Origin: Verrucomicrobiia bacterium
GTDB taxonomy: Bacteria > Acidobacteriota > Terriglobia > Terriglobales > Acidobacteriaceae
Length of the DNA stretch: 64,000 bases
NCBI GenBank assembly: GCA_035508215.1
Contig: DATJNK010000012.1
Coordinates: forward strand, 32,007 to 96,006
Direction of reading: 5' to 3'
The position numbers and the translations under genes are program-made. Every line of letters starts with the position of its first letter. Within the stretch, counting starts at the first letter, position 1. The notes under the pieces were generated by a model. That model had not been told where the DNA came from and made no database searches. It was given only the letters and a program-made list of their open reading frames with translations. Positions 94 to 18,128 of this stretch are shown here, piece by piece.

Positions 94-1449
94 GTGAGCT
101 CTCCGTCAAGTGCATCGCGAACCTTCCGCGCCATCGATGTCATCCGCCGGAAACGGGACGGCGCCGAGTTGTCCGGTGCCGAAATCGAAGGACTGGTCAA
201 CGCTTACACCAGCGGAGAGATTCCGGACTATCAAGTCTCGGCCTGGCTGATGGCCGTGGTCCTCCGCGGTATGACGCGCGCCGAGACGGCCGCGCTTACC
301 GACGCAATGCTTCACTCGGGCGAAGTGCTTGATCTCTCGTCGTTGATCCCGAGGAAAGTCGACAAGCATTCCACCGGCGGAGTGGGTGACAAGACTTCCC
401 TCGTGCTGGCACCGCTCGCGGCGGCTGCCGGCGTCGTCGTTCCGATGATCAGCGGCCGTGGCCTGGGGCATACGGGAGGAACGCTCGACAAGCTCGAAGC
501 GATTCCTGGGTTCAACGTTAATTTGCCGGTCTCGGAGTTTCGCCGCGTGCTTGGCATCTGCGGCTGCGCCATGATCGGGCAGACGGCGGAGATCGCGCCC
601 GCGGACCGCAAGCTCTATGCGCTCCGCGACGTCACAGGTACGGTCGAGAGCCCGTACTTGATCTGTGCTTCGATCATGAGCAAGAAGCTCGCGGAGGGGA
701 TCGACGCACTCGTGCTCGATGTGAAAACCGGCTCCGGCGCCTTCATGAAGAAGGAAGACGACGCGGCCTTTCTTGCTGAACTCATGGTCGAAACCGGGGA
801 GCGCATGGGCAAGAGGGTGGTTGCGCTGATTACCGACATGGATCAACCGCTTGGCAACATGATCGGCAATGCGCTGGAGGTCGTCGAGGTTGTCGAGATG
901 CTGCGCGGCGGCGGTCCCGGCGATTTGCGTGAGCTCTGTCTTGAACTAGCCGGATGGATGCTGCATCTTGGCGGTGCGTCGAAGTCCGTTGCCGAAGGAC
1001 GAGAGAAGAGCGCGCACTTGATTGCCTCGGGCGCAGCGCTCGAGAGATTCCGGAAAATGATTGAATTGCAGGGCGGAGATCCGCGAGTCATCGAGGACTC
1101 AAAGCGACTGCCCCAGGCGCGGCAAACGGCTGCCATTCGAAGCGCGAGGTCTGGATATGTCGCCGCCATGCAATGCGAACAGATCGGCACGGCCTGCGTC
1201 ATCCTCGGCGGCGGGCGTGAGCGCAAAGAGGATTCGGTCGATGCCGCGGTCGGGATTGTGTTGCACAAAAAAGTGGGCGACCGGGTTGCCACAGGCGAGC
1301 CGCTGGCCACGCTCCACTACAACGACGAAGCTCGGGGCGAACGGGCGCGGAACCTGATCGAAGCTGCCTGCGAGATTGCGGATTCGGCTCCGTCTCTGAA
1401 ACCGCCGCTGATCCATCGAATCATCGGAAAGTTCGCGGAGAACAACTGA
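94..1449 (+). CDS. deoA: thymidine / pyrimidine-nucleoside phosphorylase
   Basis: 451 aa ORF. It has the N-terminal IRRKRDG..LSGAEIEGLV motif plus HSTGGVGDKTSL and SGRGLGHTGGTLDKLE, typical of the thymidine phosphorylase family. GTG start at 94 taken from the ORF track. Confidence 0.9.
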   Translation: MSSPSSASRTFRAIDVIRRKRDGAELSGAEIEGLVNAYTSGEIPDYQVSAWLMAVVLRGMTRAETAALTDAMLHSGEVLDLSSLIPRKVDKHSTGGVGDKTSLVLAPLAAAAGVVVPMISGRGLGHTGGTLDKLEAIPGFNVNLPVSEFRRVLGICGCAMIGQTAEIAPADRKLYALRDVTGTVESPYLICASIMSKKLAEGIDALVLDVKTGSGAFMKKEDDAAFLAELMVETGERMGKRVVALITDMDQPLGNMIGNALEVVEVVEMLRGGGPGDLRELCLELAGWMLHLGGASKSVAEGREKSAHLIASGAALERFRKMIELQGGDPRVIEDSKRLPQARQTAAIRSARSGYVAAMQCEQIGTACVILGGGRERKEDSVDAAVGIVLHKKVGDRVATGEPLATLHYNDEARGERARNLIEAACEIADSAPSLKPPLIHRIIGKFAENN

Positions 1450-1452
1450 CAA

Positions 1453-2682
1453 ATGGGACACTACACAGGAATTCTCGGCCTTCTGACCATGCTGGGCCTG
1501 GCTTACGCGTTTTCGACCAATCGTCGCGCCATTCGTTTGAAGACGGTTTTCTGGGGCCTTTTCCTGCAGATCACCTTTGCCGTCTTTGTGCTGAAGTTCC
1601 CGCTCGGCCGCGACATGTTTCAGAAGATCGGCGATGCGGCCAACAAGATGCTGAGCTATTCGTACGCCGGGTCGGAGTTTGTCTTCGGGGATCTGGGCAA
1701 GCAGACCGCGCATGTCGGGTTTGTTTTTGCCTTCCAGGTGTTGCCGGTCGTGATATTCATCTGCGCGCTGTTTGCCATCCTGTACCACTTTGGCATCATG
1801 CAGTTCATCATTCGCATAGCATCCTGGGCGATGATTCGTTTCATGGGTGCCAGCGGCGCGGAGTCTCTGAACGTCGCCGCCAGCATCTTCATGGGGCAAA
1901 CCGAAGCGCCGGTAACAATTCGTCCGTTTCTGCCGGAGCTGACGCATTCCGAATTGATGACCGTGATGACGAGCGGCATGGCGCACGTCTCGGGCTCAAT
2001 CATGGCCGCCTACTTTGCCTTCGGCGCTGAGCCCCGACACGTGCTGAGCGCTGTCATTATGACCGCACCGGGAACCATTCTCGTTTCGAAGATGCTGGTA
2101 CCGGAGACGGAAGTTCCGAAGACGGCCGGTAAAGTGGTCATGAGCGCGACCGAAGAACAACAAGAGAAGCAGGAGAACCTGCTGGGCGCGATTGCCCGCG
2201 GCACCGGCGACGGCCTGCACATGGCGCTGAACATCGGGGCGATGCTGATCGCGTTTCTGGCCCTGATCGCGCTGCTGGATGGCATTCTCGGCGGGGTTCA
2301 CCGGCACCTCGGATGGTTTCCGTCGAGCCTCGAAGGAATCCTGGGCGTGCTCTTCTCGCCCGTGGCCTGGATCATTGGCATTCCCTGGCATGATTGCCAG
2401 ATCATTGGCAACCTTCTCGGCACGCGAATGGTCCTGAACGAACTCGTCGCATTTTCCATGCTGGGGCCGCAAAGAGCTGTGCTGGCCCCGCGTTCATTCA
2501 CGATTGCGACTTTCGCGTTGTGTGGATTCGCGAATCTCAGTTCGATCGGGATACAGATCGGCGGCATCGGCGCTTTGGCTCCGAACAAGAAGGCGGAACT
2601 GGCGCGGCTCGGGATTCGCGCCATGCTCGCCGGCACGATGGCCAACCTGATGTCGGCTTCGATCGCCGGCATGTTGTTGTAA
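1453..2682 (+). CDS. nupC: NupC/CNT-family concentrative nucleoside transporter
   Basis: 409 aa polytopic membrane protein starting 4 nt after the deoA stop. N-terminal GILGLL...NRRAI..K.V.WGL.LQ and C-terminal FALCGFANLSSIGIQIGG are hallmark NupC motifs. Confidence 0.85.
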   Translation: MGHYTGILGLLTMLGLAYAFSTNRRAIRLKTVFWGLFLQITFAVFVLKFPLGRDMFQKIGDAANKMLSYSYAGSEFVFGDLGKQTAHVGFVFAFQVLPVVIFICALFAILYHFGIMQFIIRIASWAMIRFMGASGAESLNVAASIFMGQTEAPVTIRPFLPELTHSELMTVMTSGMAHVSGSIMAAYFAFGAEPRHVLSAVIMTAPGTILVSKMLVPETEVPKTAGKVVMSATEEQQEKQENLLGAIARGTGDGLHMALNIGAMLIAFLALIALLDGILGGVHRHLGWFPSSLEGILGVLFSPVAWIIGIPWHDCQIIGNLLGTRMVLNELVAFSMLGPQRAVLAPRSFTIATFALCGFANLSSIGIQIGGIGALAPNKKAELARLGIRAMLAGTMANLMSASIAGMLL

Positions 2683-2814
2683 TCTACAAATCGCCCTCTG
2701 ATTCTGAGAGGCGGAAGCGGTCGCATCCTCCCTGGGAAAAGAAGCCCGCAGAAGGCTCGCGATCGGGCGGATGACCGACCAGAACAACGCTGTTCCATTA
2801 CCTACTGTTTCTAC

Positions 2815-3861
2815 TTGAGGACCACACCTGTGAAACGACTCATCATTCTGATCGCGATTCTTGCTTCGCTGGTCTGTGCCGCCCACGCTCAAACCCGCGT
2901 GATCATCGATACCGATCCCGGCATCGACGACGCCATGGCGTTGTTGCTCGCCATCAACTCACCCGAACTGAAAGTCGAGGCCATCACCGTCGTTCCGGGA
3001 AATGTCGAAGGCTGGCAAGGTCTCGAGAATGCCCTGAAGATCGCGTCGCTGGCGGGACGTTGCGACATACCGGTGGCCGCCGGCGCGCAACACCCCCTCA
3101 ATCAGAAACTGATCACCGCGCAATACTGGCATGGCAAGAATGGCCTCGCCGGCGTCGAGTTGCCTGTATCGAAATGCAAGGCCGACGCCCGCTTTGGCCC
3201 GGATCTCATCATCGAAACCGTGCATAAGTACCCACATGAGGTGACCCTGATTCCAATTGGGCCGTTGACGAATATTGCGCTCGCGGTGTCCAAGGATCCA
3301 TCGATCGTGCCCCTGGTGAAGGACGTCGTCATCATGGGCGGGTCAATCTCGGGCGGCAACGTCGATGGCGCTGCGGAGGCCAATATTTATGGCGACCCCG
3401 AAGCGGCGTCGATTGTATTCAATGCCGGATGGATGGTAACGATGATCGGCTCCGATGTTGGCGAGCGCACCCTGATTACACGCAATTATCTGACTGATCT
3501 GCAGGCGCAGCACGGGCCGGAGAGCGATTTCATTGAAAAGCTCGCGGATTTCTATTTGACCCGCTCCGAAAAGAGCGGATACCAGGGAGCCGCGATGTAC
3601 GATCCGCTGGCGGTTGCGACCGTGATCGACCCTACGCTCGTGACGCTGAAAGATATGCACGTCGACGTGGAGACGAAAGGCGAGTTTACGCGGGGCGAGA
3701 CCGTCGCCAATCGCATGGGATCGGACGAAAACAATGTGTTGCATGGCGATCACTATGAGATCGAGGGAGTGATTCCACTGACGCCGAACGCGCGCGTGTG
3801 CCTGGCCTCAGACGCGGCACGATTCCTGAAACTCTTTATTGGCCGCATTAAAGGAAAATAG
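2815..3861 (+). CDS. inosine-uridine-preferring nucleoside hydrolase family protein, signal-peptide-bearing (periplasmic/secreted)
   Basis: Canonical IUNH aspartate cluster IIDTDPGIDDAMALLLA follows a hydrophobic leader ending LVCAAHAQ. The start could be TTG 2815 or GTG 2830. Confidence 0.85.
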   Translation: MRTTPVKRLIILIAILASLVCAAHAQTRVIIDTDPGIDDAMALLLAINSPELKVEAITVVPGNVEGWQGLENALKIASLAGRCDIPVAAGAQHPLNQKLITAQYWHGKNGLAGVELPVSKCKADARFGPDLIIETVHKYPHEVTLIPIGPLTNIALAVSKDPSIVPLVKDVVIMGGSISGGNVDGAAEANIYGDPEAASIVFNAGWMVTMIGSDVGERTLITRNYLTDLQAQHGPESDFIEKLADFYLTRSEKSGYQGAAMYDPLAVATVIDPTLVTLKDMHVDVETKGEFTRGETVANRMGSDENNVLHGDHYEIEGVIPLTPNARVCLASDAARFLKLFIGRIKGK

Positions 3862-3874
3862 GTCGACCTGGGTT

Positions 3875-4852
3875 TTATTGGCTGGCGTGAGCGACCAGCA
3901 AAATCGCTAGGCCGTAGAACACGAACATTAAGGTCAAATAGGTCTTTGCCCGCGAACCGGAACCGGCGAACTCCTTCCATGCCAGCAATCCCCACAGCGC
4001 GGCCACCATCGGCGCCGACTGGCCAATCGCGTAGGAGATCGCGTAACTGGTGCTCTTTCCCGCGACGACGTTGAAGACCGTCCCCACCCCCCAAACCGCT
4101 CCGCCAAACAGGCCCAAGAGATGCCCCGAGGGCGGCCCGCCAAAAAATCCACTGAGACGGACCGGTTCGCCAACCAGCGGCTTCTTCATGAAGTAGAGAT
4201 TCCAGATAAAGCACGACAGCAGCGCACCCAGCGTGAGGAACACGACGGAGCTGTACGGAGTCAACGGATTTCCCCGGGTTGCGCCATAGGCGACAAAAGG
4301 ATTCCACAACCCCATCAATACTCCGGAGATGACGCAGATGACGATGCTTCTTCGGGAAATGGAGCGTCCGGCGCTGACCAGGCTTCCATACGCTTTACCG
4401 TCAAGGACGACCGCGATCACGGCGCAGATCACCCCGATCGCGAGGAAAAGGGCGTTTCCCTTGGGTTGCAGCGCGTAGCTCAGCACGACTCCGACAACGA
4501 GAGCAATTCCGATGGAGACGGGAAAGGCGACGGCCAGGCCGGCCATGTCAATTGCGGCAACAAGCAACAGATTGGCGAGATTGAAGATCGCGCCGCCAAC
4601 CATAGTCGACACGATGTTTGAGGTGTCGGACGACCGCACGTTATTCAGAAAGCTGGAGGCGTCGTGTCCACTGCTTCCCATCGTAAGAGCCAGCAAAAGA
4701 GAAATCAGGAAAATGCCGATGGCGTAGTCCCAGTAAAAAAGCTCGAAACGATAATTCTTGACGCCCTTGTAGGTATTGGCCCACGATCCCCAGCAGATCG
4801 CGCTGGTGATCATCATCAGCAAGGCTACGGTCAGGTTCGGCGGTGTGAACAT
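3875..4852 (-). CDS. DMT-superfamily transporter (GRP glucose/ribose-porter or ureide-permease-like)
   Basis: About 10 hydrophobic segments. The motifs ICWGSWANTYKG and GAVWGVGTVFN...YAIGQSAPMVAALWG resemble GlcU/RbsU and ureide-permease-type DMT carriers. I moved the start to ATG 4852 (MFTPPNL), because the 4927 start leaves only 26 bp to the divergent gene. Confidence 0.6.
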   Translation of the reverse strand: MFTPPNLTVALLMMITSAICWGSWANTYKGVKNYRFELFYWDYAIGIFLISLLLALTMGSSGHDASSFLNNVRSSDTSNIVSTMVGGAIFNLANLLLVAAIDMAGLAVAFPVSIGIALVVGVVLSYALQPKGNALFLAIGVICAVIAVVLDGKAYGSLVSAGRSISRRSIVICVISGVLMGLWNPFVAYGATRGNPLTPYSSVVFLTLGALLSCFIWNLYFMKKPLVGEPVRLSGFFGGPPSGHLLGLFGGAVWGVGTVFNVVAGKSTSYAISYAIGQSAPMVAALWGLLAWKEFAGSGSRAKTYLTLMFVFYGLAILLVAHASQ

Positions 4853-4953
4853 TCGGTCTCTCCCCAGAAAACGTGTAACTCTACTCTTCTTTCCGGAAGG
4901 GAACAAGGTGCTATCGAGCAGGCGCAAGCGCTTTCTCTGCTATCCTTACGCGC

Positions 4954-5916
4954 GTGTCACGCACATTCCTGATCGATACGGATACGGCTTCGGATGACGC
5001 AGTCGCGTTGATCATGGCCCTGCGCTGCCCCGATGTTCGGGTGGCCGCGATTACGGTAGTGGCCGGGAACGTCGATGTCCATCAGGCCACACGAAATGCG
5101 CTTTACACCGCCGAGCTTTGCGGGTCCGATGTTCGCGTGTTCTCCGGCGCGGATCGCCCGCTGTTGCGCTCTTATGAAAACGCGACCTGGTTTCACGGGC
5201 GCGACGGGCTTGGGGACCATAACTATCCGGCGCCCAGACGACGTCCAGAGAAATTGAATGCCGTGGATGCCATCATCGAAACAGTCGACGCTAACCGTGG
5301 GCTGGTGCTGGTTACGCTGGGTCCGCTGACGAACGTTGCCCTGGCAGTGTCGAAGGATCCTTCCATTACAGCCAAAGTCGGCCGCTGCGTTGTGATGGGA
5401 GGCAACCCGTGCTGTGAAGGGAACGTGACGCCCGCGGCCGAATACAACATTTGGGTCGACCCAGACGCGGCGCGAATTGTCATGCACAGCGGTTTGCCGA
5501 TCGAGTTGGTCGGCTGGCATCTATGCCGGGGAGACGCGGTTCTCAGCCCGAGTGACATCAGTTTTGTCGAAGATGTTCGCACTCCGCTTGCGCACTTCGC
5601 GATCGAGTGCAACAGCCACGCCCGGGCGGCATACAGGATTCAGACGGGGGAAGATGGAATCTGCCTGCCGGATCCGGTAGCGATGAGTCTTGCGCTCGAC
5701 CCATCGGTGGGCGTCAACTGGAGCGATCACTACGTGGAAGTAGAGACGCAGAGCGAATTAGCGCGCGGCATGACGGTTGTCGATCGCCTGAATGTCGCCG
5801 CGGACGAGAGGAACCGCGCTGTGTGGGCCCCCGCTCTGCAGGCGCGGAAAGCAAACGTCTGCTGGAACATCGACACGACCAGGTGGAAAAGCGCGCTTTA
5901 TAAGGCCCTTCAGTAG
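4954..5916 (+). CDS. nucleoside hydrolase (IUNH family), cytoplasmic
   Basis: N-terminal FLIDTDTASDDAVALIMAL aspartate motif directly after the start, with no signal peptide. 320 aa, typical Rih/IunH length. Confidence 0.85.
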   Translation: MSRTFLIDTDTASDDAVALIMALRCPDVRVAAITVVAGNVDVHQATRNALYTAELCGSDVRVFSGADRPLLRSYENATWFHGRDGLGDHNYPAPRRRPEKLNAVDAIIETVDANRGLVLVTLGPLTNVALAVSKDPSITAKVGRCVVMGGNPCCEGNVTPAAEYNIWVDPDAARIVMHSGLPIELVGWHLCRGDAVLSPSDISFVEDVRTPLAHFAIECNSHARAAYRIQTGEDGICLPDPVAMSLALDPSVGVNWSDHYVEVETQSELARGMTVVDRLNVAADERNRAVWAPALQARKANVCWNIDTTRWKSALYKALQ

Positions 5917-5930
5917 GATCTCGCTATCCT

Positions 5931-7328
5931 TTATCCTTTCGGCTGGGCATAAGTCGAACGCTTCAGGAACTCCCCCTGGCCCGCCCTGCCGAAAAACTTG
6001 CCGCCTTCGACGACGACCCTGCCGCGCGAAAGCACGACCTCGGGCATCCCCGTGACTTCAATGCCTTCGAACATCGAATAATCGACCCGCATATGATGAG
6101 TCTTGGCGCTGATCGTGTGCCGCTGCTTCGGATTGAAGATCACCAGGTCCGCATCACTGCCAACCGCAATCGTCCCCTTGCGCGGATAAAGGCCGAACAA
6201 TTTGGCGGGTGTGGTTGACACAAGTTCGACGAATCGATTCGCGTTGAACCGGCCTCCGGCCACACCTCCCGAATAGATCAGACTCATCCGATGCTCGACG
6301 CCGGGGCCGCCGTTCGGAATTTTGGTGAAGTCGTCGCGTCCAAGTTCCTTCTGCTCTTTGAAACAGAAGGGACAATGATCAGTGGAGACCACCTGCAGGT
6401 GGTCGCGTTTCAGGCCATTCCAAAGTTTTTCCTGGTGCCACTTTTCCCGCAGCGGCGGCGTGAAGACATACTTCGCTCCCTCGAAGCCGGGGGCGTCGAA
6501 GTTCTCCAGGGAAAGATAAAGATACTGAGGGCACGTCTCGGCGTAGACGGGAAGTCCGCGATCGCGGGCTTCGCGCACCTTTTCGAGAGCGTCGTTGCAG
6601 CTCAAATGCACGATATAAATCGGCGCTCCCGCCATCTCCGCCAGGGCGATTGCTCGCGCCGTCGCCTCGGCTTCGGCGGTGGTTGGACGGGTGAGCGCGT
6701 GGTATTTTGGCGCTTTCTTTCCTTCGGCGAGGGCTTGCTGCACGATCACGTCGATCGCCGAGCCATTCTCGGCGTGCATGCAAACCAAGCCTCCATTCCT
6801 GGAGGTCGTTTGCAGCGCTTTGAAGATGCTGCCGTCGTCAAGCATGAACACTCCGGGGTAGGCCATGAAGAGTTTGAAACTGGTCACGCCTTCGTGGACC
6901 AAGTCATTCATCTCGGCGAGTTGCCCTCCGGAGATGTCCGTCACGATGCAGTGGAAAGCGTAGTCGCAGACTGCCTTCGACGCAGCTTTAGTCATCCAAG
7001 TGTCGAAGGCTTGCCGCAGAGCCTGGCCTTTGTACTGGATGGCGAAGTCGATCAGGGTCGTAGTTCCACCGAAGGCGGCCGCACGCGTACCGGTCTCAAA
7101 ATCGTCGGCGCTGGTTGTGCCGCCGAATGGCATGTCGAGGTGAGTATGAACGTCGATGCCTCCCGGGAGAACCAGTTTGTCCGAGGCGTCGAGAAGGTTG
7201 CCGGTGTTCTGCGCGGGAAGATCGCGTCCGATGGCGACAACCTTGCCGTTTGTGATCGCAACGTCGGCTGTGTATGTGTCGGTTGCTGTCACTAGCGAAC
7301 CGTTTCTGATGATGGTGTCAAAGGTCAT
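5931..7328 (-). CDS. hydA: dihydropyrimidinase / D-hydantoinase
   Basis: 465 aa cyclic amidohydrolase. It has GGIDVHTHLDMPFGGT (HxH metal site), the GTRAAAFGGTTT..DFA motif and a downstream VSTDHCPF motif, typical of dihydropyrimidinases. Confidence 0.88.
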   Translation of the reverse strand: MTFDTIIRNGSLVTATDTYTADVAITNGKVVAIGRDLPAQNTGNLLDASDKLVLPGGIDVHTHLDMPFGGTTSADDFETGTRAAAFGGTTTLIDFAIQYKGQALRQAFDTWMTKAASKAVCDYAFHCIVTDISGGQLAEMNDLVHEGVTSFKLFMAYPGVFMLDDGSIFKALQTTSRNGGLVCMHAENGSAIDVIVQQALAEGKKAPKYHALTRPTTAEAEATARAIALAEMAGAPIYIVHLSCNDALEKVREARDRGLPVYAETCPQYLYLSLENFDAPGFEGAKYVFTPPLREKWHQEKLWNGLKRDHLQVVSTDHCPFCFKEQKELGRDDFTKIPNGGPGVEHRMSLIYSGGVAGGRFNANRFVELVSTTPAKLFGLYPRKGTIAVGSDADLVIFNPKQRHTISAKTHHMRVDYSMFEGIEVTGMPEVVLSRGRVVVEGGKFFGRAGQGEFLKRSTYAQPKG

Positions 7329-10843: not shown

Positions 10844-10956
10844 GACTCCTCCAGACTCGACTTTCGAGGAACGAAACTATAGCAGAAATTGTGGCGCAGA
10901 AAGCGGGCAGGCGCGAGATTCGAAGCCGGGATTGCTCGCGTTACTCGACATTGACA

Positions 10957-10985
10957 TTGACATGCCCTAAGACGCTGGCTACACT
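10957..10985 (+). promoter_or_regulatory. sigma-70-type promoter candidate for rbsK
   Basis: TTGACA (10957-10962), a 17-nt spacer, then TACACT (10980-10985), about 30 nt upstream of the rbsK ATG. A second overlapping TTGACA lies 6 nt upstream (ATTGACATTGACAT). Confidence 0.4.
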
Positions 10986-11017
10986 CGCCCTTCTTTGAAC
11001 TTCAGCCTCCGGAGCTT

Positions 11018-11947
11018 ATGGCAAAACGCCCGCGAATCGTGGTAGTCGGCAGCGCGAACATCGATCTCACGACATTTACCAATCAATTTCCGAAGCCGGG
11101 CGAAACCCTGTTTGCGGAGAGATTCGACCTGGGTTTCGGCGGGAAAGGCGCGAATCAGGCGGTGGCCGCCAGGCTGTGCGGCGCGGAGGTTTTCATGGTC
11201 GCGCGCGTGGGCAGCGATCTCTTCGGCCCCGCGACAATTGAGAACTTTCGCAAACAAGGGATCGACCCGACACACGTAAAACAGGTCGCAGGACTGTCGA
11301 GCGGTGTGGCTCCGATCTTTGTCGAGTCCAACGGACAGAATCGGATCCTGGTGGTGAAAGGCGCCAACGATGCATTGAAACCCTCAGACGTGGATGCGGC
11401 CGCCGAGACTCTGAAGACTGCCGACTGCATCGTGCTGCAGTTCGAAATCCCGCTCGAGACGGTTTACTACACTGTCGATTTTGCCCGGCGCAATAATATC
11501 CGCTGTATTGTGAACCCGGCGCCGGCGCAACCGGTCGATCTTTCAGCGCTCCGGGATCTGGATTACTTTGTTCCCAACGAGAGCGAGGCGGAGGCCATCG
11601 CGGGCGCGCCCGTGAAGAATCTGGACGACGCCAGGAAATGCGCCGAACGAATGCTGAAGGCGGGAATTCGCAGAGTAATTATCACTCTCGGGGCGAAGGG
11701 GTGCCTCCTGGCCGGCAGCGAGGGATGCGACCACATTCCACCGTTCAAAGTGGAGAGTGTCGACAGCACCGGGGCGGGAGACGCATTCATTGGCAGCTTT
11801 GCCGTCTTTCTCGGCGAAGGAGCCCCGGAAAAAGAAGCATTGCGGCTCGCCAATCTCTACGCTGCTTTATCCACCACAGGGGTTGGAACGCAGAAATCGT
11901 TCTACGACCGTGCCCGCTTCGACGCCCAGTGGGCTGCTCGCCGCTGA
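11018..11947 (+). CDS. rbsK: ribokinase
   Basis: VVVGSANIDL, GGKGANQAVAA and the C-terminal DSTGAGDAFIGSFA (PfkB signature 2) are present. 309 aa. Confidence 0.9.
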   Translation: MAKRPRIVVVGSANIDLTTFTNQFPKPGETLFAERFDLGFGGKGANQAVAARLCGAEVFMVARVGSDLFGPATIENFRKQGIDPTHVKQVAGLSSGVAPIFVESNGQNRILVVKGANDALKPSDVDAAAETLKTADCIVLQFEIPLETVYYTVDFARRNNIRCIVNPAPAQPVDLSALRDLDYFVPNESEAEAIAGAPVKNLDDARKCAERMLKAGIRRVIITLGAKGCLLAGSEGCDHIPPFKVESVDSTGAGDAFIGSFAVFLGEGAPEKEALRLANLYAALSTTGVGTQKSFYDRARFDAQWAARR

Positions 11948-12115
11948 GTAGGAACCGTTGTTTTCGCAGAACATAACTTGTGTTTCGCGACCGTTTCGTC
12001 GTGCTCTGCCAGCCTGCCGGTCGCAGATTCGCTGAAAGAACGAAGCCTTCGACATTTCTGCTGATTGCGATTCAGAAAATGACGACGAACGGCGCTGTTG
12101 TCTCGCCGAAAAGTC

Positions 12116-12144
12116 TTGACTTACCGACGAGCGGAGATTTATAA
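12116..12144 (+). promoter_or_regulatory. sigma-70-type promoter candidate for the TonB-dependent receptor
   Basis: TTGACT (12116-12121), a 17-nt spacer, then TTATAA (12139-12144), about 90 nt upstream of ATG 12233. Confidence 0.4.
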
Positions 12145-12232
12145 GCCGAGTCTGCGGTCGGGGGCTCTCCCAGGTTCAATCTGCGGGAGAATACTCTCTT
12201 TTTGGGGCAGGCCGCCGAAAGGGGTTCAGTCG

Positions 12233-15200
12233 ATGCCAAGCACGAAGATGCTTGTCGCAGTGGTGGTGTCAGCGCTGGTTTTTGTGTGCGGTCCCTTTGC
12301 GTTGGGTCAGGCGACCGGCAGCTTTTCGGGCACGGTGTCGGACAACTCGGGAGCTGTCATCGCCGGCGCGAAAGTGACAGTCACTGCTCAGGCGACGAAT
12401 ATCTCGCGCCAGGCGCCGACCGATGATAGCGGGCACTACATTGTGCCGCTGCTTGGCGTTGGCGAATACACGGTCCGAGTCGAGGCCGCAGGCTTCAAAC
12501 CGGGTGAGTCGAAAGACATTCGCCTGCAAATCGACGAACACCGCGAGCTGGACTTCAAGCTGGTTCCCGCCTCAGTGACAACCAATGTTGAAGTGAGCGC
12601 AACCGAAGTAGCGGTCGAAACGTCCACTCCAACGCTCGGTCAAGTCATTACTGCTGAAGAAGTGTCCGAACTGCCGCTGAACGGGCGAAATTTCGTACAA
12701 CTGGCGACCCTTACCCCCGGCACCACGGCCTCCACGAGTCCGGTGAGTTTCTTCACGAGCGCGGCGAGCAGCGAGGCTGCCACGCGTGGTTCCTTTTCGC
12801 TTTCGGTGGGTGGTTCGCGAGAACAGGAAACCGACTGGCTCCTCGATGGCAACGACAATAACCAACTCGATGAAGGCGGCATCGCCATCTTCTCGTCTAT
12901 CGACGACATCCAGGAGTTCAAGGTTCTCACCTACAACTATTCTGCAGAATTTGGCGAGCGCGCCGGCCCGACCGTGCTGGTGACAACCAAGTCGGGATCG
13001 AATCAGTTTCACGGATCGGTGTTCGAGTTCTTCCGCAACACCAAGCTCGACGCCCGCAGTTACTTCGCGAGTTCGGTTGAGAAATTCAACTTAAACCAGT
13101 TTGGGGGGTCTCTCGGCGGTCCGATCAAGAAGGACAAGACATTTTTCTTTGTAGATTATCAAGCGAAAATGCAGCGGCACGGGATACCATTCACCGGCTT
13201 CGTTCCTACGACCGCGATGTATACACCGGACGCAAATGGCAATTACGACTTCAGCGGCACCGCCACTGGGAGGCAGCTGAATGACCCGTTCTCCGGTTCA
13301 CCTTTCCAGTGCCTGCCGGGCACCTCGACTTCGGAACCCGTCTTGGCAGATGGGAGTCAGCCGACAGGTCAGAATTGTAACGTTATCCCGGGCGCGCTCG
13401 CGAGCCCGATCGGCCAGCAGATTCTGCAACTTTATCCGGCCCCGAACGTGAGCGGAGCCGGCTATAACTACGTTAACGAGCCGGTAAGAAAGCTGAATGA
13501 GGGGACATTTGACGTTCGGCTGGACCACTCCTTCTCGAACAAAGACTCCGCCTTTGCGCGCTTCAGCTACGATCAGGCGACGAACTTCGTCCCCGGCGGC
13601 TCACCGACGTGGGCCGAAGTCAACGCGTTTGGCAGCAATCAGCATATCGAGAATCATGGCCGCAACCTGGCAATTTCGGAAACCCACATCTTTTCCTCCA
13701 GCACCATCAACCAGGCGAGCGTTGGTTTCAATCGCATCTTCAACCACATTCTTTCCTTCGGCACAGACGGCAGCTGCAAAGCGGCGCTGATCGGCATTCC
13801 GGGTTCAGATCTGGGAGCGGCGTGCGATGGGATCACAGGCTACCCAGCCAGCCTCAATCAGTCCAGCAAGGATTGCATCAGTTGTGGCATGACGTCCTTC
13901 CTGATGTCGAACTACATGTCGGTGGGCGATCGCGGCTATTCTCCCTACCAGGGCGGCACCAACGTCTATTCGATTTCTGACACGCTCGACTTGATTCGCG
14001 GGAAACATAATCTGCGCGTCGGCGCCGTCTATCGCGCTAACGAAATGAACATCCGGAACAACGCCTTCCAGGACGGGTTCGCGGTTGAGAACGCAATGTG
14101 GACGGGCGATGATGCAGCCGATCTGCTGCTGGGAGCGTGGGGTGTATTCGCCGCGCACGACCAGACGTTCTTGGGCGGGACGGTTGGCCGTCGCTGGAAG
14201 CTGTTTCGCCCATTTGTGCAAGACGATTGGCGTGTAACCAACAACCTTACGGTGAACATCGGCGTGGCGTGGGCGCTGGCAACACCGGAAACCGAAGTTG
14301 GACACCGCCAGGCGAATTTCGATATCCAGACCCTGAAGTGGTATGTCCCGAAGGGAAGTCCGACGTTAGACACCTGCACCGTCTGCATTGCCAGTGACGC
14401 ACGAGCTGGAATTCAGCTGGACAAGACAGCGTTCGAGCCGCGCATCGGGTTGTCCTGGAAACCGATGGGCAGCGACAAGACTGCGATTCGTGCCGGCTAC
14501 GCCATCTATCACGATTCTGCCTGGAATCAAGGCGGACAAGGACTCTGGCAGAACCCGCCTTACTATGCCGAAGTCGATCCGTGCGCCTTCTGCTTCTCGT
14601 ACGGAAGCGCGTTCGGAGCGCTCGGAGGGGGTTTCCTGTTGGCACCGGATACCCCATCTGCTCTCAATGTTCCAGGTGGCGCCATCTACGACGCCCCGGT
14701 CAATCCGGCGGACTACAGCGGAACCATCCAATCGATGAACCGGAATTTCAAGCAGGGCATGGTGCAACAGTACAACCTGAACGTGGAACACCAACTCCCT
14801 GGCAACGTTGTGCTCACGGCAGGTTATGCCGGCTCGAAGAGCACGCACATTCTGGTCGGCCAGTCGAACGAGAACCTCAATGAACCGAGCGCCTGCCCGG
14901 GCGAGCCGAATGAGACCGCGGGCTACACCGTCGGCTGTGGCTTTGGGAATTTTCCTTATGCGTTGGCTTTTCAGAGCGTGAGCGCGAACAACAGCGTTGG
15001 GACCGCGCGATATGATTCCCTGCAGGTGAAAGCCGAGACCAAGAGTTCGCGGCACGGGCTTTACGCTCTGCTTGGCTACACCTGGTCGCGCACGTTTGAC
15101 TCCGGCATGCCCGATGGTCTGGGCACCAATCCCGGTGCAATCTACTATCCGCTGCCCGGGTACAAGAAGCTTGACTGGGGATTGTCGCAGCTCAACCTGA

Positions 15201-15817
15201 ATGACAGCTTCACGGCGAGCGTTCTTTATGACTTGCCCTTCGGCAAGGGGAAACACTTCGGCAGCAACTGGAACGGAGCCACCAATACTGTCTTCGGCAA
15301 CTGGCAACTGGATCTGATCGAACGCGCAACCTCGGGATTTCCCCTCTTTGTGGTTGACAGCGCGGATGAGTCCGGGACCTTTTTCTCGTACAACGGCGGC
15401 ACCTATCAACGCCCGAACCAAGTCGGGGATCCAAACCGGCCCGGCCCCGTGGCCGGGAATCCTGGGTGCACTGCGCCGTCGCAGATTCACACGATACAGA
15501 ACTGGTTCAATCCTTGCGCTTTCATGCAGGCGCCGACCGGAGAGCTAGGCACGGCAGCTCGAGCGCCAGTGTATGGTCCGCGTTTCGTAAACACGGATTT
15601 CTCGATCATCAAGGACTTTCCGTTCCCCTGGCGTGAAGGCATGAACCTGCAGTTCCGAGCTGAATTCTTCAATCTGTTTAACCATCCGCAGTTCTTCCTG
15701 CAAGGAGCCGGAGGCAGTGGTGAGCAGGATATCAACGCGTCGGCGACGTTTGGGGTAATCAACGCGACGGTGAATAATCCCCGGCTTATTCAGTTTGCAT
15801 TGAAACTGAGGTTCTGA
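12233..15817 (+). CDS. TonB-dependent receptor with N-terminal carboxypeptidase-regulatory-like domain
   Basis: Signal peptide MPSTKMLVAVVVSALVFVCGPFALGQA. CarboxypepD_reg-like segment GSFSGTVSDNSGAVIAGAKVTV...DDSGHYIVP..GEYTVRVEAAGF. Plug region (LNGRNFVQLATLTPG) and a long barrel ending ...FALKLRF with terminal aromatic residue. Start set at ATG 12233 rather than the 12098 ORF start. Confidence 0.85.
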   Translation: MPSTKMLVAVVVSALVFVCGPFALGQATGSFSGTVSDNSGAVIAGAKVTVTAQATNISRQAPTDDSGHYIVPLLGVGEYTVRVEAAGFKPGESKDIRLQIDEHRELDFKLVPASVTTNVEVSATEVAVETSTPTLGQVITAEEVSELPLNGRNFVQLATLTPGTTASTSPVSFFTSAASSEAATRGSFSLSVGGSREQETDWLLDGNDNNQLDEGGIAIFSSIDDIQEFKVLTYNYSAEFGERAGPTVLVTTKSGSNQFHGSVFEFFRNTKLDARSYFASSVEKFNLNQFGGSLGGPIKKDKTFFFVDYQAKMQRHGIPFTGFVPTTAMYTPDANGNYDFSGTATGRQLNDPFSGSPFQCLPGTSTSEPVLADGSQPTGQNCNVIPGALASPIGQQILQLYPAPNVSGAGYNYVNEPVRKLNEGTFDVRLDHSFSNKDSAFARFSYDQATNFVPGGSPTWAEVNAFGSNQHIENHGRNLAISETHIFSSSTINQASVGFNRIFNHILSFGTDGSCKAALIGIPGSDLGAACDGITGYPASLNQSSKDCISCGMTSFLMSNYMSVGDRGYSPYQGGTNVYSISDTLDLIRGKHNLRVGAVYRANEMNIRNNAFQDGFAVENAMWTGDDAADLLLGAWGVFAAHDQTFLGGTVGRRWKLFRPFVQDDWRVTNNLTVNIGVAWALATPETEVGHRQANFDIQTLKWYVPKGSPTLDTCTVCIASDARAGIQLDKTAFEPRIGLSWKPMGSDKTAIRAGYAIYHDSAWNQGGQGLWQNPPYYAEVDPCAFCFSYGSAFGALGGGFLLAPDTPSALNVPGGAIYDAPVNPADYSGTIQSMNRNFKQGMVQQYNLNVEHQLPGNVVLTAGYAGSKSTHILVGQSNENLNEPSACPGEPNETAGYTVGCGFGNFPYALAFQSVSANNSVGTARYDSLQVKAETKSSRHGLYALLGYTWSRTFDSGMPDGLGTNPGAIYYPLPGYKKLDWGLSQLNLNDSFTASVLYDLPFGKGKHFGSNWNGATNTVFGNWQLDLIERATSGFPLFVVDSADESGTFFSYNGGTYQRPNQVGDPNRPGPVAGNPGCTAPSQIHTIQNWFNPCAFMQAPTGELGTAARAPVYGPRFVNTDFSIIKDFPFPWREGMNLQFRAEFFNLFNHPQFFLQGAGGSGEQDINASATFGVINATVNNPRLIQFALKLRF

Positions 15818-15846
15818 CAGACTCTGAAATGTATACGGGAAAATCG

Positions 15847-15884
15847 GGGCAGACTGGAGAGTCTCCGGTCTGCCCTTTGCTTTT
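15847..15884 (+). terminator. Rho-independent terminator after the TonB-dependent receptor gene
   Basis: GGGCAGACTGGAGA-g-TCTCCgGTCTGCCC hairpin followed by TTTGCTTTT, 30 nt after the stop codon. Confidence 0.7.
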
Positions 15885-15914: not shown

Positions 15915-17015
15915 ATGGGGTCTTGGGGTTTGAGACGGACATTGTTGGGAGTTATTCTTCTTTCCAGTTCGCTGGCGGCGCAGAAGATCAAAATCATCGT
16001 GGACCAGGATGCCCGCGGCCCCGGAACCAGTGATCAACAAGCGATTCTTGTCTTCCTCCAGTCGGAGAAGTTCGATGTCCTCGGGATCACGACCGTCAGC
16101 GGCGACCAGTGGGTGAAGGAAGAGACCCAGCACGCTCTTCGTCTATTGGAAATTTCCGGGCACGCAGATGTCCCCGCCTATCAGGGCGCCGAATTTCCGC
16201 TCCTCAACTCCAAAGAAGAAACCGAGCGCTGGGAGGCGCTCTACGGAAAGCTCGAATACAAGGGCTGCTGGACCGACTTCGAAGCCAACCGCTCCACAAT
16301 TTACCGCGAGCCTTATCACGGGCCGGATATCGTGCCACCGATGCCGGAGGGTGAGCCGCATATTCACGCTCAGCCCGGAACTGCCGCTGAGTTTATCGTC
16401 CAGATGGTCCACAAGTATCCCGGGGAAGTCGTCTTGTGGGCGGGAGGTCCGCTGACCAACTATGCGCTTGCTTTGAAACTCGATCCTTCCATCGCAGGCC
16501 TGGCAAAAGAGTTTGTCTTGATGGGCAGCGGCCTCTACGCTGACAAGGGTGCCATCGACGCTGGAGCGATTGACGCGCGGCGGGAATTCAACTGGTGGTT
16601 CGATCCAGAAGCGGCGCGTATCGTGCTGCGCGCTCCATGGAAGAAGATGACCATTACCCCGATCGACATTTCCGTCAAGACCCGCTTCACTTCGGAAATG
16701 AAGGCGACCATCGCGAAGGCCGACACCCCGATCACTCGCTATATCGACAAATACTCGCTGCCCGGCTACATGTGGGATGAAATTGCCGGGGTGGCTCTGA
16801 TCGATCCATCGATCATTACCGGCGAGAAGAGGCTCTATATGGATATCGACATCGACCATGGAGCCAGTTATGGCAAGACTTTATTCTGGGATGCGTCGGC
16901 TTCGGTCCCGCCGTACGAACGCCTGGCCAACGTTCAATTCGACATTGACGCAGAGAAGTTCTACAAGATATTCATCGACCTGATGACACGCCCTCCGGGC
17001 GGAGAGCCGAAATAA
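15915..17015 (+). CDS. secreted nucleoside-hydrolase-family protein, divergent subgroup (paralog 1)
   Basis: Signal peptide (LLGVILLSSSLAAQ). IUNH-like fold markers are present (IIVDQDARGPGTSDQQAIL, VLGITTVSGDQW, GGPLTNYALAL, NWWFDPEAARIV), but the aspartate cluster is interrupted. AGGAGA RBS upstream. Confidence 0.75.
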   Translation: MGSWGLRRTLLGVILLSSSLAAQKIKIIVDQDARGPGTSDQQAILVFLQSEKFDVLGITTVSGDQWVKEETQHALRLLEISGHADVPAYQGAEFPLLNSKEETERWEALYGKLEYKGCWTDFEANRSTIYREPYHGPDIVPPMPEGEPHIHAQPGTAAEFIVQMVHKYPGEVVLWAGGPLTNYALALKLDPSIAGLAKEFVLMGSGLYADKGAIDAGAIDARREFNWWFDPEAARIVLRAPWKKMTITPIDISVKTRFTSEMKATIAKADTPITRYIDKYSLPGYMWDEIAGVALIDPSIITGEKRLYMDIDIDHGASYGKTLFWDASASVPPYERLANVQFDIDAEKFYKIFIDLMTRPPGGEPK

Positions 17016-17033
17016 GATCCAGGGACTCGTCTT

Positions 17034-18128
17034 GTGATCCTCACCGCGAACCTCATGCAAAGATCGAGATACGTTTCTGCAGGCGCGCTTTTGTTGGCAT
17101 CCACCCTCACGCTGGCTGCGCCCCGACGAAAGATCATCATCAACGAGGACTGCTCCGGGCCGGGTGGAAGCAACATGCAAACCGTGGCTCTTCTGGTGCA
17201 GTCGCCGGAAGTGGAAGTACTCGGCGTGACCGTGGTCAGCGGCGATCAATGGCGCGACGAAGAGGTAGCGCACACCTTGCGCCTGCTCGAAATCATGGGG
17301 CGCGCCGATATCCCGGTTGTTCCCGGCGCAGAGTTCCCGCTGGTGCGAACGCGAAGAGAAGAGCAGTTCTGGCAAGCGCAGTATGGCAAAGTCGCCTACG
17401 CCGGAGCCTGGGACGATCGCTGGTGGCACGAAGCCTCCGTCATTCCCGAACTGCCCGAGGGTTCCCCGACCGCGAAAGCACTCAACGAAGACGCGGCGCA
17501 TTTCCTGATTCGGATGGTGCACCGGTATCCGCATCAAGTGACAATCTACGAAGGCGGGCCCATGACGAACCTCGCGCTCGCCATCTCGCTCGACCCAGAA
17601 TTTCCTGAACTGGCGCAGGAACTCGTGTTTATGGGCGGCAGCCTGAGTCCGGAGACCAATAACCCTGAGTTCCTGAACAATCCGCGCCACGAGTTCAACT
17701 TCTGGTTCGATCCAGAGGCGGCAGAGATTGTTCTACGCGCGCCCTGGAAGAAAATCACGTGCACTCCGGTCGACATCTCGGTGAAGACCCATTTGACCGA
17801 AGCGCTCGTCAAGCAGATTGAGGCGAGTGGGACGCCGCTGGCCCGCTATATTGCCCGCTTCGCCATGCTTACTCCCGGAGCGGACATCATGTGGGACGAA
17901 TTGGCCGCCGCTGCCTGGATTGATCCCTCGCTCATCACGAAAACTGAGACTCGCCACATGGGAGTGGACCTCGACCGCGGCGCTGGATATGGAAATACCG
18001 TAACCTGGCCGGCGACGAGTGATGCTAAGGCGGCCGCTCAGCCGGTTGCGATCCAAATGGATCTCAATAAAGAAAAGTTCTATCGCATGTTCGTGACTCG
18101 GATGAGCGCCTCCACGCCCGCGCCCTGA
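17034..18128 (+). CDS. secreted nucleoside-hydrolase-family protein, divergent subgroup (paralog 2)
   Basis: Clearly homologous to the preceding gene along its whole length (VLGVTVVSGDQW, GGPMTNLALAI, NFWFDPEAAEIV). The N-terminal motif is degenerate: IIINEDCSGPGGSNMQ. The start may be GTG 17034 or ATG 17055 (MQRSRYVSAGALLLAS... signal peptide). Confidence 0.7.
   Translation: MILTANLMQRSRYVSAGALLLASTLTLAAPRRKIIINEDCSGPGGSNMQTVALLVQSPEVEVLGVTVVSGDQWRDEEVAHTLRLLEIMGRADIPVVPGAEFPLVRTRREEQFWQAQYGKVAYAGAWDDRWWHEASVIPELPEGSPTAKALNEDAAHFLIRMVHRYPHQVTIYEGGPMTNLALAISLDPEFPELAQELVFMGGSLSPETNNPEFLNNPRHEFNFWFDPEAAEIVLRAPWKKITCTPVDISVKTHLTEALVKQIEASGTPLARYIARFAMLTPGADIMWDELAAAAWIDPSLITKTETRHMGVDLDRGAGYGNTVTWPATSDAKAAAQPVAIQMDLNKEKFYRMFVTRMSASTPAP

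Follow-up and report, generated by a model that had tools for sequence, protein, structure and literature searches.

By function, the closest known system to the gene cluster described here is the rus locus of Bacteroides thetaiotaomicron (BT2802-09; Glowacki et al., bioRxiv 10.1101/574913). The cluster lies at positions 94-18128 of a 64,000-nt stretch of DNA, the window (contig DATJNK010000012.1, positions 32,007-96,006 of the forward strand, assembly GCA_035508215.1), and, judged by the families of its proteins, it is very probably a locus for the catabolism of nucleosides and pyrimidines that includes a large outer-membrane receptor of the Oar subclass. All 13 open reading frames (ORFs) that a first-pass annotation of the sequence had placed there are present, and their matches to Pfam and NCBIfam models of the families that had been named exceed the curated cut-offs by far. 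The single theme that had been read from them, nucleoside scavenging combined with reductive pyrimidine degradation, is upheld by these assignments. The host of the locus is a Terriglobales acidobacterium related to Candidatus Sulfotelmatobacter, and the locus is split into several transcription units.

Like rus, the locus encodes (here by prediction) a TonB-dependent transporter, a ribokinase, a periplasmic IU-family hydrolase and an inner-membrane sugar permease, and in both cases the enzyme content varies between species. Here, this rus-type gene combination is conserved in dozens of loci; the likeness is a functional one only, and the transporter and permease families differ. What sets rus apart is a SusC/SusD pair, rusR as a linked regulator, the presence of two ribokinases and a glycoside hydrolase, whereas the present locus has an Oar-type receptor, no SusD, no linked regulator and three secreted hydrolases, two of them non-canonical, and in addition NupC, an NCS1 permease, cdd, deoA, deoC and a block for the degradation of the pyrimidine ring. 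The absence of a SusD partner was correctly seen in the first-pass annotation, as the receptor gene is flanked by rbsK and the hydrolase gene NH3 and all 13 genes belong to other families, and because there is no SusC/SusD pair, the locus is not a Sus-like polysaccharide utilisation locus in the strict sense. In B. thetaiotaomicron, RusC/D and RusNH are dispensable for growth on nucleosides (bioRxiv 10.1101/574913). The searched literature gave no characterised locus of such a composition besides the Bacteroides rus system, in agreement with what had been stated before.

By description, the receptor can be likened to Oar of Myxococcus xanthus (PMC6434023), with which it shares a signal peptide, a CarboxypepD_reg extension, a TonB box or, in the present protein, a TonB-box-like motif near residue 120, for which mutations at E118 and I122 have been described in Oar (PMC6434023), and a large (here predicted) barrel. 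Oar has a Pfam Plug match and is required for the export of the protease PopC, whereas the receptor described here has no match to the Plug hidden Markov model (HMM) and stands in a context that points to nutrient acquisition.

With the reductive pyrimidine pathway (PydA, i.e. PreT-PreA, together with PydB and PydC), the locus shares PydB, a beta-ureidopropionase-like amidase and a nucleobase permease. Relatives from Bryobacterales have the canonical PreT-PreA in the same context, but in the window PreT-PreA is absent with an LLM oxidoreductase in its place, and the amidase is of the nitrilase (eukaryote-like) and not of the M20 type. The enterobacterial cdd/deo/nupC regulon and RihA/B/C have in common with the locus cdd, deoA, deoC, nupC and a cytoplasmic IU-family nucleoside hydrolase; in contrast to the enterobacterial case, there is no linked CytR or DeoR, deoB and deoD are not seen, a TonB-type receptor is found instead of Tsx, and some of the hydrolases are secreted. 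Among the F420-dependent LLM enzymes (Mer, Fgd, Adf and hydroxymycolic acid dehydrogenase), Mer is the closest one with a solved structure, and uracil or thymine, as proposed, would be a new substrate for the TIGR03842 family. The hyu clusters, finally, consist of a D-hydantoinase, a D-carbamoylase and an Mhp1-type NCS1 permease, and the same three protein families form one block in the window. The amidase of the window is nearer to beta-ureidopropionases, however, there is no racemase, and the block is embedded in nucleoside genes.

How could these components act together? We infer the substrates, the direction of transport, the dependence on F420 and the co-regulation of the genes from the sequences, and we assign a probability of roughly 0.6 to the scheme as a whole. 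The Oar-subclass TonB-dependent transporter, which would be produced from its own promoter, would take up nucleosides, or ribosides of slightly larger size, from low external concentrations into the periplasm, where three secreted IU-family hydrolases, the canonical NH1 and the variant-clade proteins NH3 and NH4 with their changed ribose- and Ca-binding residues, would cut the N-glycosidic bond. The sugar would then enter the cytoplasm via a DMT carrier and be phosphorylated by RbsK, free bases would enter via the NCS1 permease, and intact nucleosides would be taken up by NupC and processed by Cdd, DeoA and the cytoplasmic NH2. DeoC would split deoxyribose-5-phosphate, and the adjacent aldehyde dehydrogenases, which like DeoC are encoded just outside the window, would oxidise the acetaldehyde. 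For the bases, a TIGR03842-family LLM oxidoreductase may reduce uracil and thymine as a non-orthologous replacement of PreT-PreA, with F420H2 as proposed donor, whereupon dihydropyrimidinase would open the ring and beta-ureidopropionase would remove the carbamoyl group, yielding beta-alanine or beta-aminoisobutyrate along with NH3 and CO2.

Linkage of the receptor with nucleoside genes and variant hydrolases

The receptor was searched for in one genome per GTDB species, and +/-10 kb around the receptor was sampled per genome (sampled loci and contigs carry L numbers in the following). Orthologues with 55-79% identity are present in 80 loci, all of them from Acidobacteriota (Candidatus Sulfotelmatobacter, other Terriglobales and Bryobacterales). 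Of the 57 loci whose 9-kb flanks are complete, 53 carry at least one gene of the cluster (at least 50% identity) beside the receptor, and the remaining four are those with the most distant receptors (55-57% identity). The most conserved neighbour is a hydrolase of the NH4/NH5 type (best match NH4, at least 50% identity; 44 of the 57 loci), and other commonest neighbours are rbsK (38 loci), deoC (31) and the gene of a 794-aa double aldehyde dehydrogenase, Ald794 (31). The rbsK gene lies directly upstream of the receptor gene in 40 of 71 evaluable loci, and a variant-clade hydrolase gene directly downstream in 34 of 69. A comparison of synteny had been proposed with the first-pass annotation, and an adjacency that is conserved in no related genome would have counted as a refutation. 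The contrary is clearly the case, as receptor, ribokinase and secreted hydrolase are encoded together in dozens of species. Between species, the modules cdd-deoA-nupC-NH1, deoC-Ald794 and dihydropyrimidinase-LLM-NCS1-amidase are permuted and inverted, yet they are kept beside the receptor, which argues for a selection on the linkage and not for its mere inheritance. Some loci, such as L014, L023, L028 and L038, have the receptor and rbsK without an adjacent variant hydrolase, and elsewhere there are extra genes between receptor and hydrolases, coding for CarboxypepD_reg-TPR, FG-GAP/ASPIC-TPR, amidase and FGE-sulfatase proteins. Genes for nucleases, phosphatases or nucleotidases were found neither in the window nor among the extra genes inspected in other loci.

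The strongest argument for a functional pairing of receptor and hydrolase comes from two unrelated lineages, as hydrolases of the variant clade have been combined with a non-homologous type of receptor on at least two occasions. On plasmid NZ_CP117882.1 of Novosphingobium sp. KACC 22771 (L087:6179-13436), a signal-peptide-bearing NH4 homologue with 40% identity is part of a co-directional run that comprises a classical receptor (Plug and TonB_dep_Rec domains), an M20 peptidase, the hydrolase, an NCS2 permease and a gene of the adenosine-deaminase family, and a 91%-identical copy of this run is present in a metagenome (L092). Another metagenome contig (L095:5496-9026) encodes a classical TonB receptor whose gene immediately precedes that of a hydrolase from this clade. 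There are also several variant-clade members that stand alone. For distant genomic contexts, including those of the LLM oxidoreductase described below, tblastn against plasmids was used, as the homology lists shown for the LLM and for the receptor contained close relatives only.

The receptor gene (12233-15817, plus strand) codes for a predicted Oar-subclass outer-membrane transporter of 1194 aa. Its start was corrected from 12098 to 12233, because the longer ORF would span the gene's own conserved promoter (12116-12145). A signal-like N-terminus (MPSTKMLVAVVVSALVFVCGPFALGQA) is followed by the CarboxypepD_reg extension (PF13620, at residues 76-155 of the long ORF with 75.5 bits, the cut-off being 32.3), a TonB-box-like TNVEVSA, a plug-like segment, and a predicted barrel of about 940 aa (PF25183, OMP_b-brl_4, 668 bits over 937 residues) that ends with FALKLRF and thus with a C-terminal Phe. 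The public names of the protein are carboxypeptidase-regulatory-like or hypothetical protein. When a profile of 78 orthologues was compared by hhalign with six classical receptors (FhuA, FepA, BtuB, CirA and two others), residues 137-314 aligned with the plug over 149 colinear columns (E = 9.7e-4, probability 22%); a comparison by hhalign with one classical receptor was negative. The alignment spans the plug start, the RG and DG motifs and the plug C-terminal stretch, and the stretches that correspond in FhuA are presumably standard plug motifs. The segment IQEFKVLTYNYSAEFGERAGPTVLVTTKSG aligns with the plug C-terminal stretch in FhuA and the five other classical receptors, which we take to be a hallmark motif of plugs. 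The TonB-box-like sequence T117-N-V-E-V-S-A123, a motif-level match without statistics, is located 13 residues before the plug start, and its VEV is invariant in 40 homologues. This layout, with TNVEVSA, 13 residues and QVITAEEV, resembles that of BtuB, in which DTLVVTA precedes TVVTRQDI. From the architecture and the weak plug homology, the protein is a probable TonB-dependent transporter. It had earlier been designated a CarboxypepD_reg-type TonB-dependent receptor; the CarboxypepD_reg domain is confirmed, and the architecture is that of the Oar subclass (PMC6434023). That it imports the substrates of the cluster appears to us rather probable.

Four IU-family proteins are encoded in the cluster, and all belong clearly to the family (PF01156, cut-off 34), as had been noted, but only two of them are of the ordinary type. 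NH1 (2815-3861, plus strand; 303 bits) is a canonical and predicted secreted nucleoside hydrolase with the motif DTDPGIDD, whose N-terminus, MRTTPVKRLIILIAILASLVCAAHA followed by QT, reads as a signal peptide. Its catalytic and ribose-contacting positions all align with the canonical residue, and a Tyr is found at the position of His241. NH2 (4954-5916, plus strand; 291 bits) is a canonical hydrolase with the motif DTDTASDD that lacks a signal peptide and is taken to be cytoplasmic. The public gene call for NH2 starts at 5014 and gives a protein of 300 aa that loses this catalytic motif; as the motif is conserved in eight orthologues, the GTG at 4954 is the likely true start. NH3 (15915-17015, plus strand; 181 bits; motif DQD-ARG-PGTSD) and NH4 (17034-18128, plus strand, with a probable start at 17055; 195 bits; motif NED-CSG-PGGSN) are predicted secreted homologues of a variant clade, and their PDB relatives are all nucleoside hydrolases. 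The claim of three signal peptides agrees with our reading of NH1, NH3 and NH4, which was made by eye from a basic, then hydrophobic, then Ala-rich stretch; those of NH3 and NH4 are ordinary ones without a lipobox.

In the motif DXDXXXDD, the second and fourth Asp bind Ca2+ and the third Asp binds ribose (bioRxiv 10.1101/574913). NH1 and NH2 conform to this motif, whereas the corresponding residues are D-D-S-D in NH3 and N-D-S-N in NH4, each with a three-residue insert before GPG. NH3 thus has a Ser instead of the ribose-binding third Asp, and NH4 has Asn at the positions of the first and fourth Asp and Ser at that of the third. NH3 and NH4, which are 45% identical to each other, form a separate clade with a third paralogue, NH5, that is encoded in many other loci. 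In this clade, the third Asp is Ser or Thr, the equivalent of His241 is Trp and the insert precedes a conserved GPG, while the equivalents of Asp10, Thr126, Glu166, Asn168 and Asp242 are kept, and this pattern is conserved across the orthologues. Among 1.84 billion cluster representatives, the clade accounts for 256 clusters (50% identity) at E <= 1e-30; of the best 150 clusters, about 65 have the motif [DN]xDxxGPxx[ST][DN], and the canonical DD is found in 9, which are the more distant ones. The variant hydrolases form a large, conserved and, by prediction, secreted group that is probably catalytically active, with an altered recognition of the glycone, and that is to our knowledge uncharacterised. 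NH5 has the motif IDQDAAGPAGTDQQ (e.g. L013:13685-22469, L009:14835-17479 and many others), and its gene usually adjoins those of a divergent CarboxypepD_reg-TPR protein and of a large FG-GAP/ASPIC/TPR protein. In L053, L054, L082 and L100, five hydrolase paralogues follow the receptor in a row.

The pyrimidine-ring block and its LLM oxidoreductase

Degradation of the pyrimidine ring to beta-alanine had been proposed from the first-pass annotation, and while the dihydropyrimidinase and a likely amidase for this pathway are indeed encoded, there is no dihydropyrimidine dehydrogenase as the required uracil/thymine reductase, a gap that had not been noticed. The only candidate for this step is the LLM oxidoreductase. 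The dihydropyrimidinase (PydB, D-hydantoinase; 5931-7328, minus strand) matches the equivalog model TIGR02033 with 635.6 bits (cut-off 393). The nitrilase-superfamily N-carbamoyl amidase (Nit; 9950-10843, minus strand; CN_hydrolase 224 bits) has its best PDB matches in the beta-ureidopropionases of Drosophila and human (E = 7e-64 and 6e-60), closely followed by N-carbamoylputrescine amidase (5e-57), with D-carbamoylase at 2e-29. No NCBIfam equivalog scores above its cut-off for this protein, the best being aguB with 254 against 410 bits, and the context favours beta-ureidopropionase, the function of PydC, as the most likely activity. The gene of the NCS1 nucleobase:cation symporter (8463-9902, minus strand; TIGR00800 398 bits against 353, Transp_cyt_pur 407 bits) belongs to the same block.

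Between the genes of the dihydropyrimidinase and the NCS1 permease lies that of an F420-type LLM-class oxidoreductase of the TIGR03842 family (7451-8455, plus strand; 415.6 bits against 295.45). Its start was corrected from 7367 to 7451, giving a protein of 334 aa, and an identical protein carries a TIGR03842-type LLM name at NCBI. Of the proteins with a solved structure, F420-dependent Mer enzymes are its nearest relatives, with a full-length match at E = 1e-33. A RutA-type pyrimidine monooxygenase was considered for this protein as well and rejected, as there is no RutA among its 22 NCBIfam matches and it groups with the Mer-like F420 enzymes.

Could this LLM be the missing reductase? When E. 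coli PreT and PreA were used in tblastn searches, none was found in the window. Of the 168 loci that were sampled (2.4 Mb), only three have homologues, namely L079 and L080, which are from Bryobacterales, and, with PreT only, L066. All three lack the LLM. Conversely, the LLM-bearing loci have no PreT-PreA in the +/-10 kb examined, the one exception being a weak and partial match to PreT in L024 (E = 7e-8, with 30% identity across about 200 residues). L080 is arranged as receptor, aldehyde dehydrogenase, dihydropyrimidinase, PreA, PreT and NCS1, so that PreA-PreT are exactly in the position of the LLM, and in L079, PreA-PreT are encoded beside the amidase and near the receptor. The LLM gene adjoins the dihydropyrimidinase gene in 20 of 20 evaluable acidobacterial loci. 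The same adjacency exists in two Streptomyces replicons, in which the gene of the LLM (46-47%) comes directly after that of a dihydropyrimidinase (55-56% identity) and the amidase (57-59%) is encoded close by; Pfam searches with the intervening ORFs of the Streptomyces cluster were uninformative. On the basis of these contexts, the chances are about even, or slightly below, that the LLM is an F420H2-dependent uracil/thymine reductase that replaces PreT-PreA.

Indirect support for F420 as the cofactor comes from other genomes. On plasmid 3 of Variovorax sp. PBL-E5 (L091:5414-15973), genes for an amidohydrolase, a CN-hydrolase and an LLM are clustered with those for a CobW-type GTPase, npdG, RidA and cofGHDCE, which looks like an F420-supplied pathway for the degradation of a cyclic amide. 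The trio is only 30-36% identical to the proteins of the window, and its LLM (32%) is annotated only as a flavin-dependent LLM. On plasmids of Paracoccus alcaliphilus (L084:2587-9002) and Leisingera (L085:2510-9002), a TIGR03842 LLM gene is the last one of a cofG-cofH-cofD-cofC-cofE-npdG operon. F420 biosynthesis genes are reported from some Acidobacteria, and according to a review from 2021, the role of F420 outside Actinobacteria has never been studied experimentally (PMC8498797). In the searched literature, nothing relevant linked F420 or LLM enzymes to dihydropyrimidinase or to the reduction of uracil, and no TIGR03842 member with a described substrate was found.

Further genes, promoters and borders of the locus

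The remaining genes of the cluster fit into the catabolism of nucleosides. The deoA gene (94-1449, plus strand) encodes a thymidine/pyrimidine-nucleoside phosphorylase (NF004490 563 bits against a cut-off of 269, with three Pfam domains), and nupC (1453-2682, plus strand) an inner-membrane nucleoside transporter of the CNT family with the domains Nucleos_tra2_N, Gate and Nucleos_tra2_C, which scores slightly below the cut-off of TIGR00804 (437 against 442 bits). The ribokinase gene rbsK (11018-11947, plus strand) matches TIGR02152 with 342 bits (cut-off 300), and its product may phosphorylate deoxyribose, too. The permease of the DMT superfamily (3875-4852, minus strand; 325 aa, with the start corrected from 4927 to 4852) had been described as a GRP/ureide-permease-like carrier; the family is right, and the plant ureide/uracil permease model (Ureide_permease, 72 bits) outscores the sugar-porter model (Sugar_transport, 32 bits). 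Candidate substrates are ribose or deoxyribose, or a nucleobase. The carrier is encoded in 38 of the 57 orthologous loci with full flanks, mostly adjoining deoC, NH1 or rbsK.

Footprinting of ten upstream regions indicates conserved sigma-70-type promoters for rbsK, the receptor, the dihydropyrimidinase/LLM pair, the amidase, cdd and deoC. The predicted rbsK promoter (10957-10985, plus strand) consists of TTGACA, 17 nt and TACACT, is with 10 of 12 positions the best one in the scan, and has hexamers that are conserved in 49 orthologous upstream regions. For the receptor, the predicted promoter (12116-12145, plus strand) with TTGACT, 17 nt and TTATAA(G) is unique in the window, and in 41 loci, TCTTGACT as well as TTATAAG shows a conservation of at least 90%. 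The divergent dihydropyrimidinase/LLM promoter region contains the block GAATTCTATGCTAAACTGCCGCCCTTTAG at 7376-7404, which may represent a promoter or operator and in which most positions are at least 70-90% conserved in 21 orthologous intergenic regions.

The 5' leader of the receptor gene contains attenuator-like hairpins that are followed by a U-run (12165-12203, plus strand). The two hairpins, CUCUCCC...GGGAGA and GGGAGA...CUCUC, are mutually exclusive, and the second one precedes UUUUU; a terminator-like site lies at 12185-12198. A CCUCC/GGGAG hairpin with U-run is found in about 14 orthologous leaders, and other loci have a different type of leader. As there is almost no covariation (one compensatory pair of five), we do not claim this leader as a riboswitch or attenuator. 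Neither an obvious riboswitch leader nor a transcription factor had been seen before, and this holds true: no transcription factor is encoded within 94-18128, and Rfam gave nothing at E <= 1 in positions 1-24000 of the window or in the upstream 10.5 kb. In six orthologous loci, the Rfam search at gathering threshold yielded one unrelated small RNA only, Acido-Lenti-1 (RF01687; 48 bits, with 37 as gathering score), which lies at L022:2886-2931 just downstream of the gene for the double aldehyde dehydrogenase. Downstream of the receptor gene, an intrinsic-terminator-like hairpin with a 14-bp stem, nine of its pairs being G-C, followed by TTGCTTTT, is the top-ranked one in the scan (15846-15876, plus strand).

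Concerning the borders, the extent of 18 kb that had been given for the cluster is correct at the right border (18128), whereas the left border is an artefact of the window edge, at which the cluster is cut. Contig L001 is 100% identical to positions 1-11449 of the window (the window starts at L001:9908) and has upstream of deoA, at L001:3621-10004, in this order cdd, a divergent deoC, the gene of the 794-aa double aldehyde dehydrogenase and that of a 501-aa aldehyde dehydrogenase. The end of cdd overlaps the start of deoA in L001. The full unit thus has 17 genes in about 24 kb and extends about 5.8 kb beyond the window start, and the genes outside the window, cdd, deoC and those of the aldehyde dehydrogenases, add a deoxyribose branch. 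Beyond the gene of the 501-aa aldehyde dehydrogenase, L001 carries a gene for PyrR (regulator / uracil phosphoribosyltransferase) and then one for a GGDEF protein. PyrR is thus encoded near the cluster here, and among the other sampled loci it is adjacent in L065 only; a PyrR-binding RNA was not found. The GC content of the cluster is 57-60%, the same as in the remaining window, and because of this uniformity the locus is regarded as a native gene cluster and not as a compositionally foreign island. A horizontally acquired island was considered and rejected, as there is no compositional anomaly.

NH4 is followed by a small ORF and then by recJ. The small ORF (18171-18671, 166 aa) occupies the gap between both genes. 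Many orthologous loci keep NH4 and recJ about 650-740 bp apart, which suggests a real small gene. Past recJ, at 20814-25713, the minus strand encodes an SBBP beta-propeller-repeat protein and an ABC ATPase (22435-23226), and there is also a 798-aa protein with LptC-like and LptD_N/LptA-like domains, a region that looks like a lipopolysaccharide-transport neighbourhood unrelated to the cluster. NCBI names the source metagenome-assembled genome Verrucomicrobiae bacterium (its proteins P0001 and P0121 are identical to the LLM and the receptor of the window, respectively), and as the close relatives of the locus belong without exception to Acidobacteriota (Terriglobales), this bin is probably misclassified.

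Alternative mechanisms and implications

Several points weigh against the proposed scavenging scheme. It is based on sequence and comparative genomics. Concerning the receptor, Pfam gives no Plug match (PF07715) even at E <= 10 when the sub-sequence is searched, NCBIfam gives no relevant match at E <= 10, and PDB searches, whether started from the single sequence or from a profile of 40 sequences, match nothing but the carboxypeptidase D regulatory domain. The hhalign probability of the plug alignment is low, and an AlphaFold2 model from 40 homologues with 76-81% identity is unusable with a mean pLDDT of 33.5. Oar, the sole member of the Oar subclass that has been characterised, is required for the secretion of PopC and hence an exporter (PMC6434023). 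As their canonical motif is altered, NH3 and NH4 may act on compounds other than ordinary nucleosides. Nucleosides are small enough for ordinary porins, and an energised transporter is therefore not obviously needed. As to co-regulation, the strong terminator-like site separates the receptor gene from NH3-NH4, and no shared palindromic operator was found in the ten footprinted upstream regions. With respect to the LLM, the family members of Paracoccus and Leisingera have no pyrimidine genes nearby, so that the substrate of TIGR03842 enzymes may differ between lineages, and a canonical PreT-PreA could be encoded elsewhere in the genome. A tblastn search with CofG/H/D/C/E and NpdG of Paracoccus gave nothing in 1.67 Mb of acidobacterial sequence, but this sample covers only this locus per genome, and the result is thus uninformative either way.

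What alternatives exist for an uptake of nucleosides by the receptor? Since Oar exports a protease (PMC6434023), the receptor might instead export the hydrolases encoded next to it, an alternative that has to be taken seriously. In such a case, the receptor would work outward and secrete NH3 and NH4, the cleavage would take place outside, and ribose and bases would enter via porins and inner-membrane carriers. The Oar-subclass architecture would be compatible with this, as would the ordinary signal peptides without lipobox and the fact that the NH3/NH4/NH5 clade is the most conserved neighbour of the receptor. However, Novosphingobium and L095 pair the same clade with classical receptors of the importer type, characterised TonB-dependent transporters are nearly all importers, and the four loci named above keep receptor and rbsK without an adjacent variant hydrolase, and we therefore consider an outward function improbable. 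The receptor could also import a larger or different ribose-containing compound, for whose glycone the variant hydrolases would be specialised. Oligonucleotides, NAD or nicotinamide riboside, ADP-ribose, 5'-modified or deoxy-nucleosides, cytokinin ribosides and nucleoside antibiotics are candidates, and it would fit that TonB-dependent transporters typically take substrates too large or too scarce for porins, that NH3, NH4 and NH5 lack the ribose-binding third Asp and probably also the equivalent of Asn160, that up to five hydrolase paralogues follow the receptor, and that rus is also thought to target an unidentified ribose-containing nutrient (bioRxiv 10.1101/574913). We give little credit to this possibility, since neither the window nor the inspected extra genes code for a nuclease, phosphatase or nucleotidase, and the cytoplasmic part is ordinary nucleoside and pyrimidine catabolism. 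Still less can be said for a receptor that is adjacent by descent only, has an unrelated substrate and leaves the nucleoside genes to function independently of it. Acidobacteria do encode very many Oar-type receptors (567 relatives in the receptor scan), a terminator and separate promoters flank the receptor gene, and the four most distant loci lack genes of the cluster, but the linkage has outlasted repeated rearrangements of the flanks across two orders and arose independently with non-homologous classical receptors, which makes such a coincidence very improbable.

Apart from the receptor, the function of the LLM needs to be weighed. It may not be a uracil reductase if PreT-PreA or another reductase is encoded elsewhere, which the sampling of +/-10 kb around the receptor per genome would have missed, or if the dihydropyrimidinase-LLM-NCS1-amidase block is a hydantoin module of the hyu type, since a D-hydantoinase, a carbamoylase of the nitrilase family and an NCS1 permease are likewise combined in hyu clusters. 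The position of the Paracoccus and Leisingera family members away from pyrimidine genes and the low identity of the Variovorax trio agree with this idea. On the other hand, the amidase scores 219 bits against beta-ureidopropionases and 106 against D-carbamoylases, the block travels with cdd, deoA, nupC and nucleoside hydrolases, LLM and PreT-PreA are mutually exclusive at the same position in the sampled loci, and the adjacency of dihydropyrimidinase and LLM is kept in Streptomyces at 46-56% identity. A function of the LLM other than uracil reduction thus appears rather unlikely, although not strongly so. The scavenging of nucleosides with the help of the receptor is preferred as the explanation for the locus, and its extension, namely that TIGR03842 LLMs are F420H2-dependent uracil/thymine reductases in Terriglobales, Streptomyces and others and that, at the same time, the Oar-type receptors and variant-motif hydrolases constitute a high-affinity nucleoside scavenging system, is put forward tentatively, as somewhat less likely than not.

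Acidobacteria are among the most abundant bacteria of soil and peat and encode very many Oar-type receptors, and we know of no acidobacterial receptor of this type with an assigned substrate. The genomic link to nucleoside catabolism therefore provides a first concrete and testable substrate hypothesis for these receptors, and it points to breakdown products of extracellular RNA and DNA as a source of carbon and nitrogen in oligotrophic soils. If the hypothesis is true, it would be the first substrate assignment for a very large receptor family, and the scavenging system would be widespread in Acidobacteria of peat and soil. The variant hydrolase clade with its 256 clusters is a sizeable enzyme family. 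If the LLM indeed replaces PreT-PreA, it would fill a missing step of pyrimidine degradation in several phyla, and this would be the first defined physiological role of F420 in Acidobacteria and a catabolic role of this cofactor outside Actinobacteria and methanogens.

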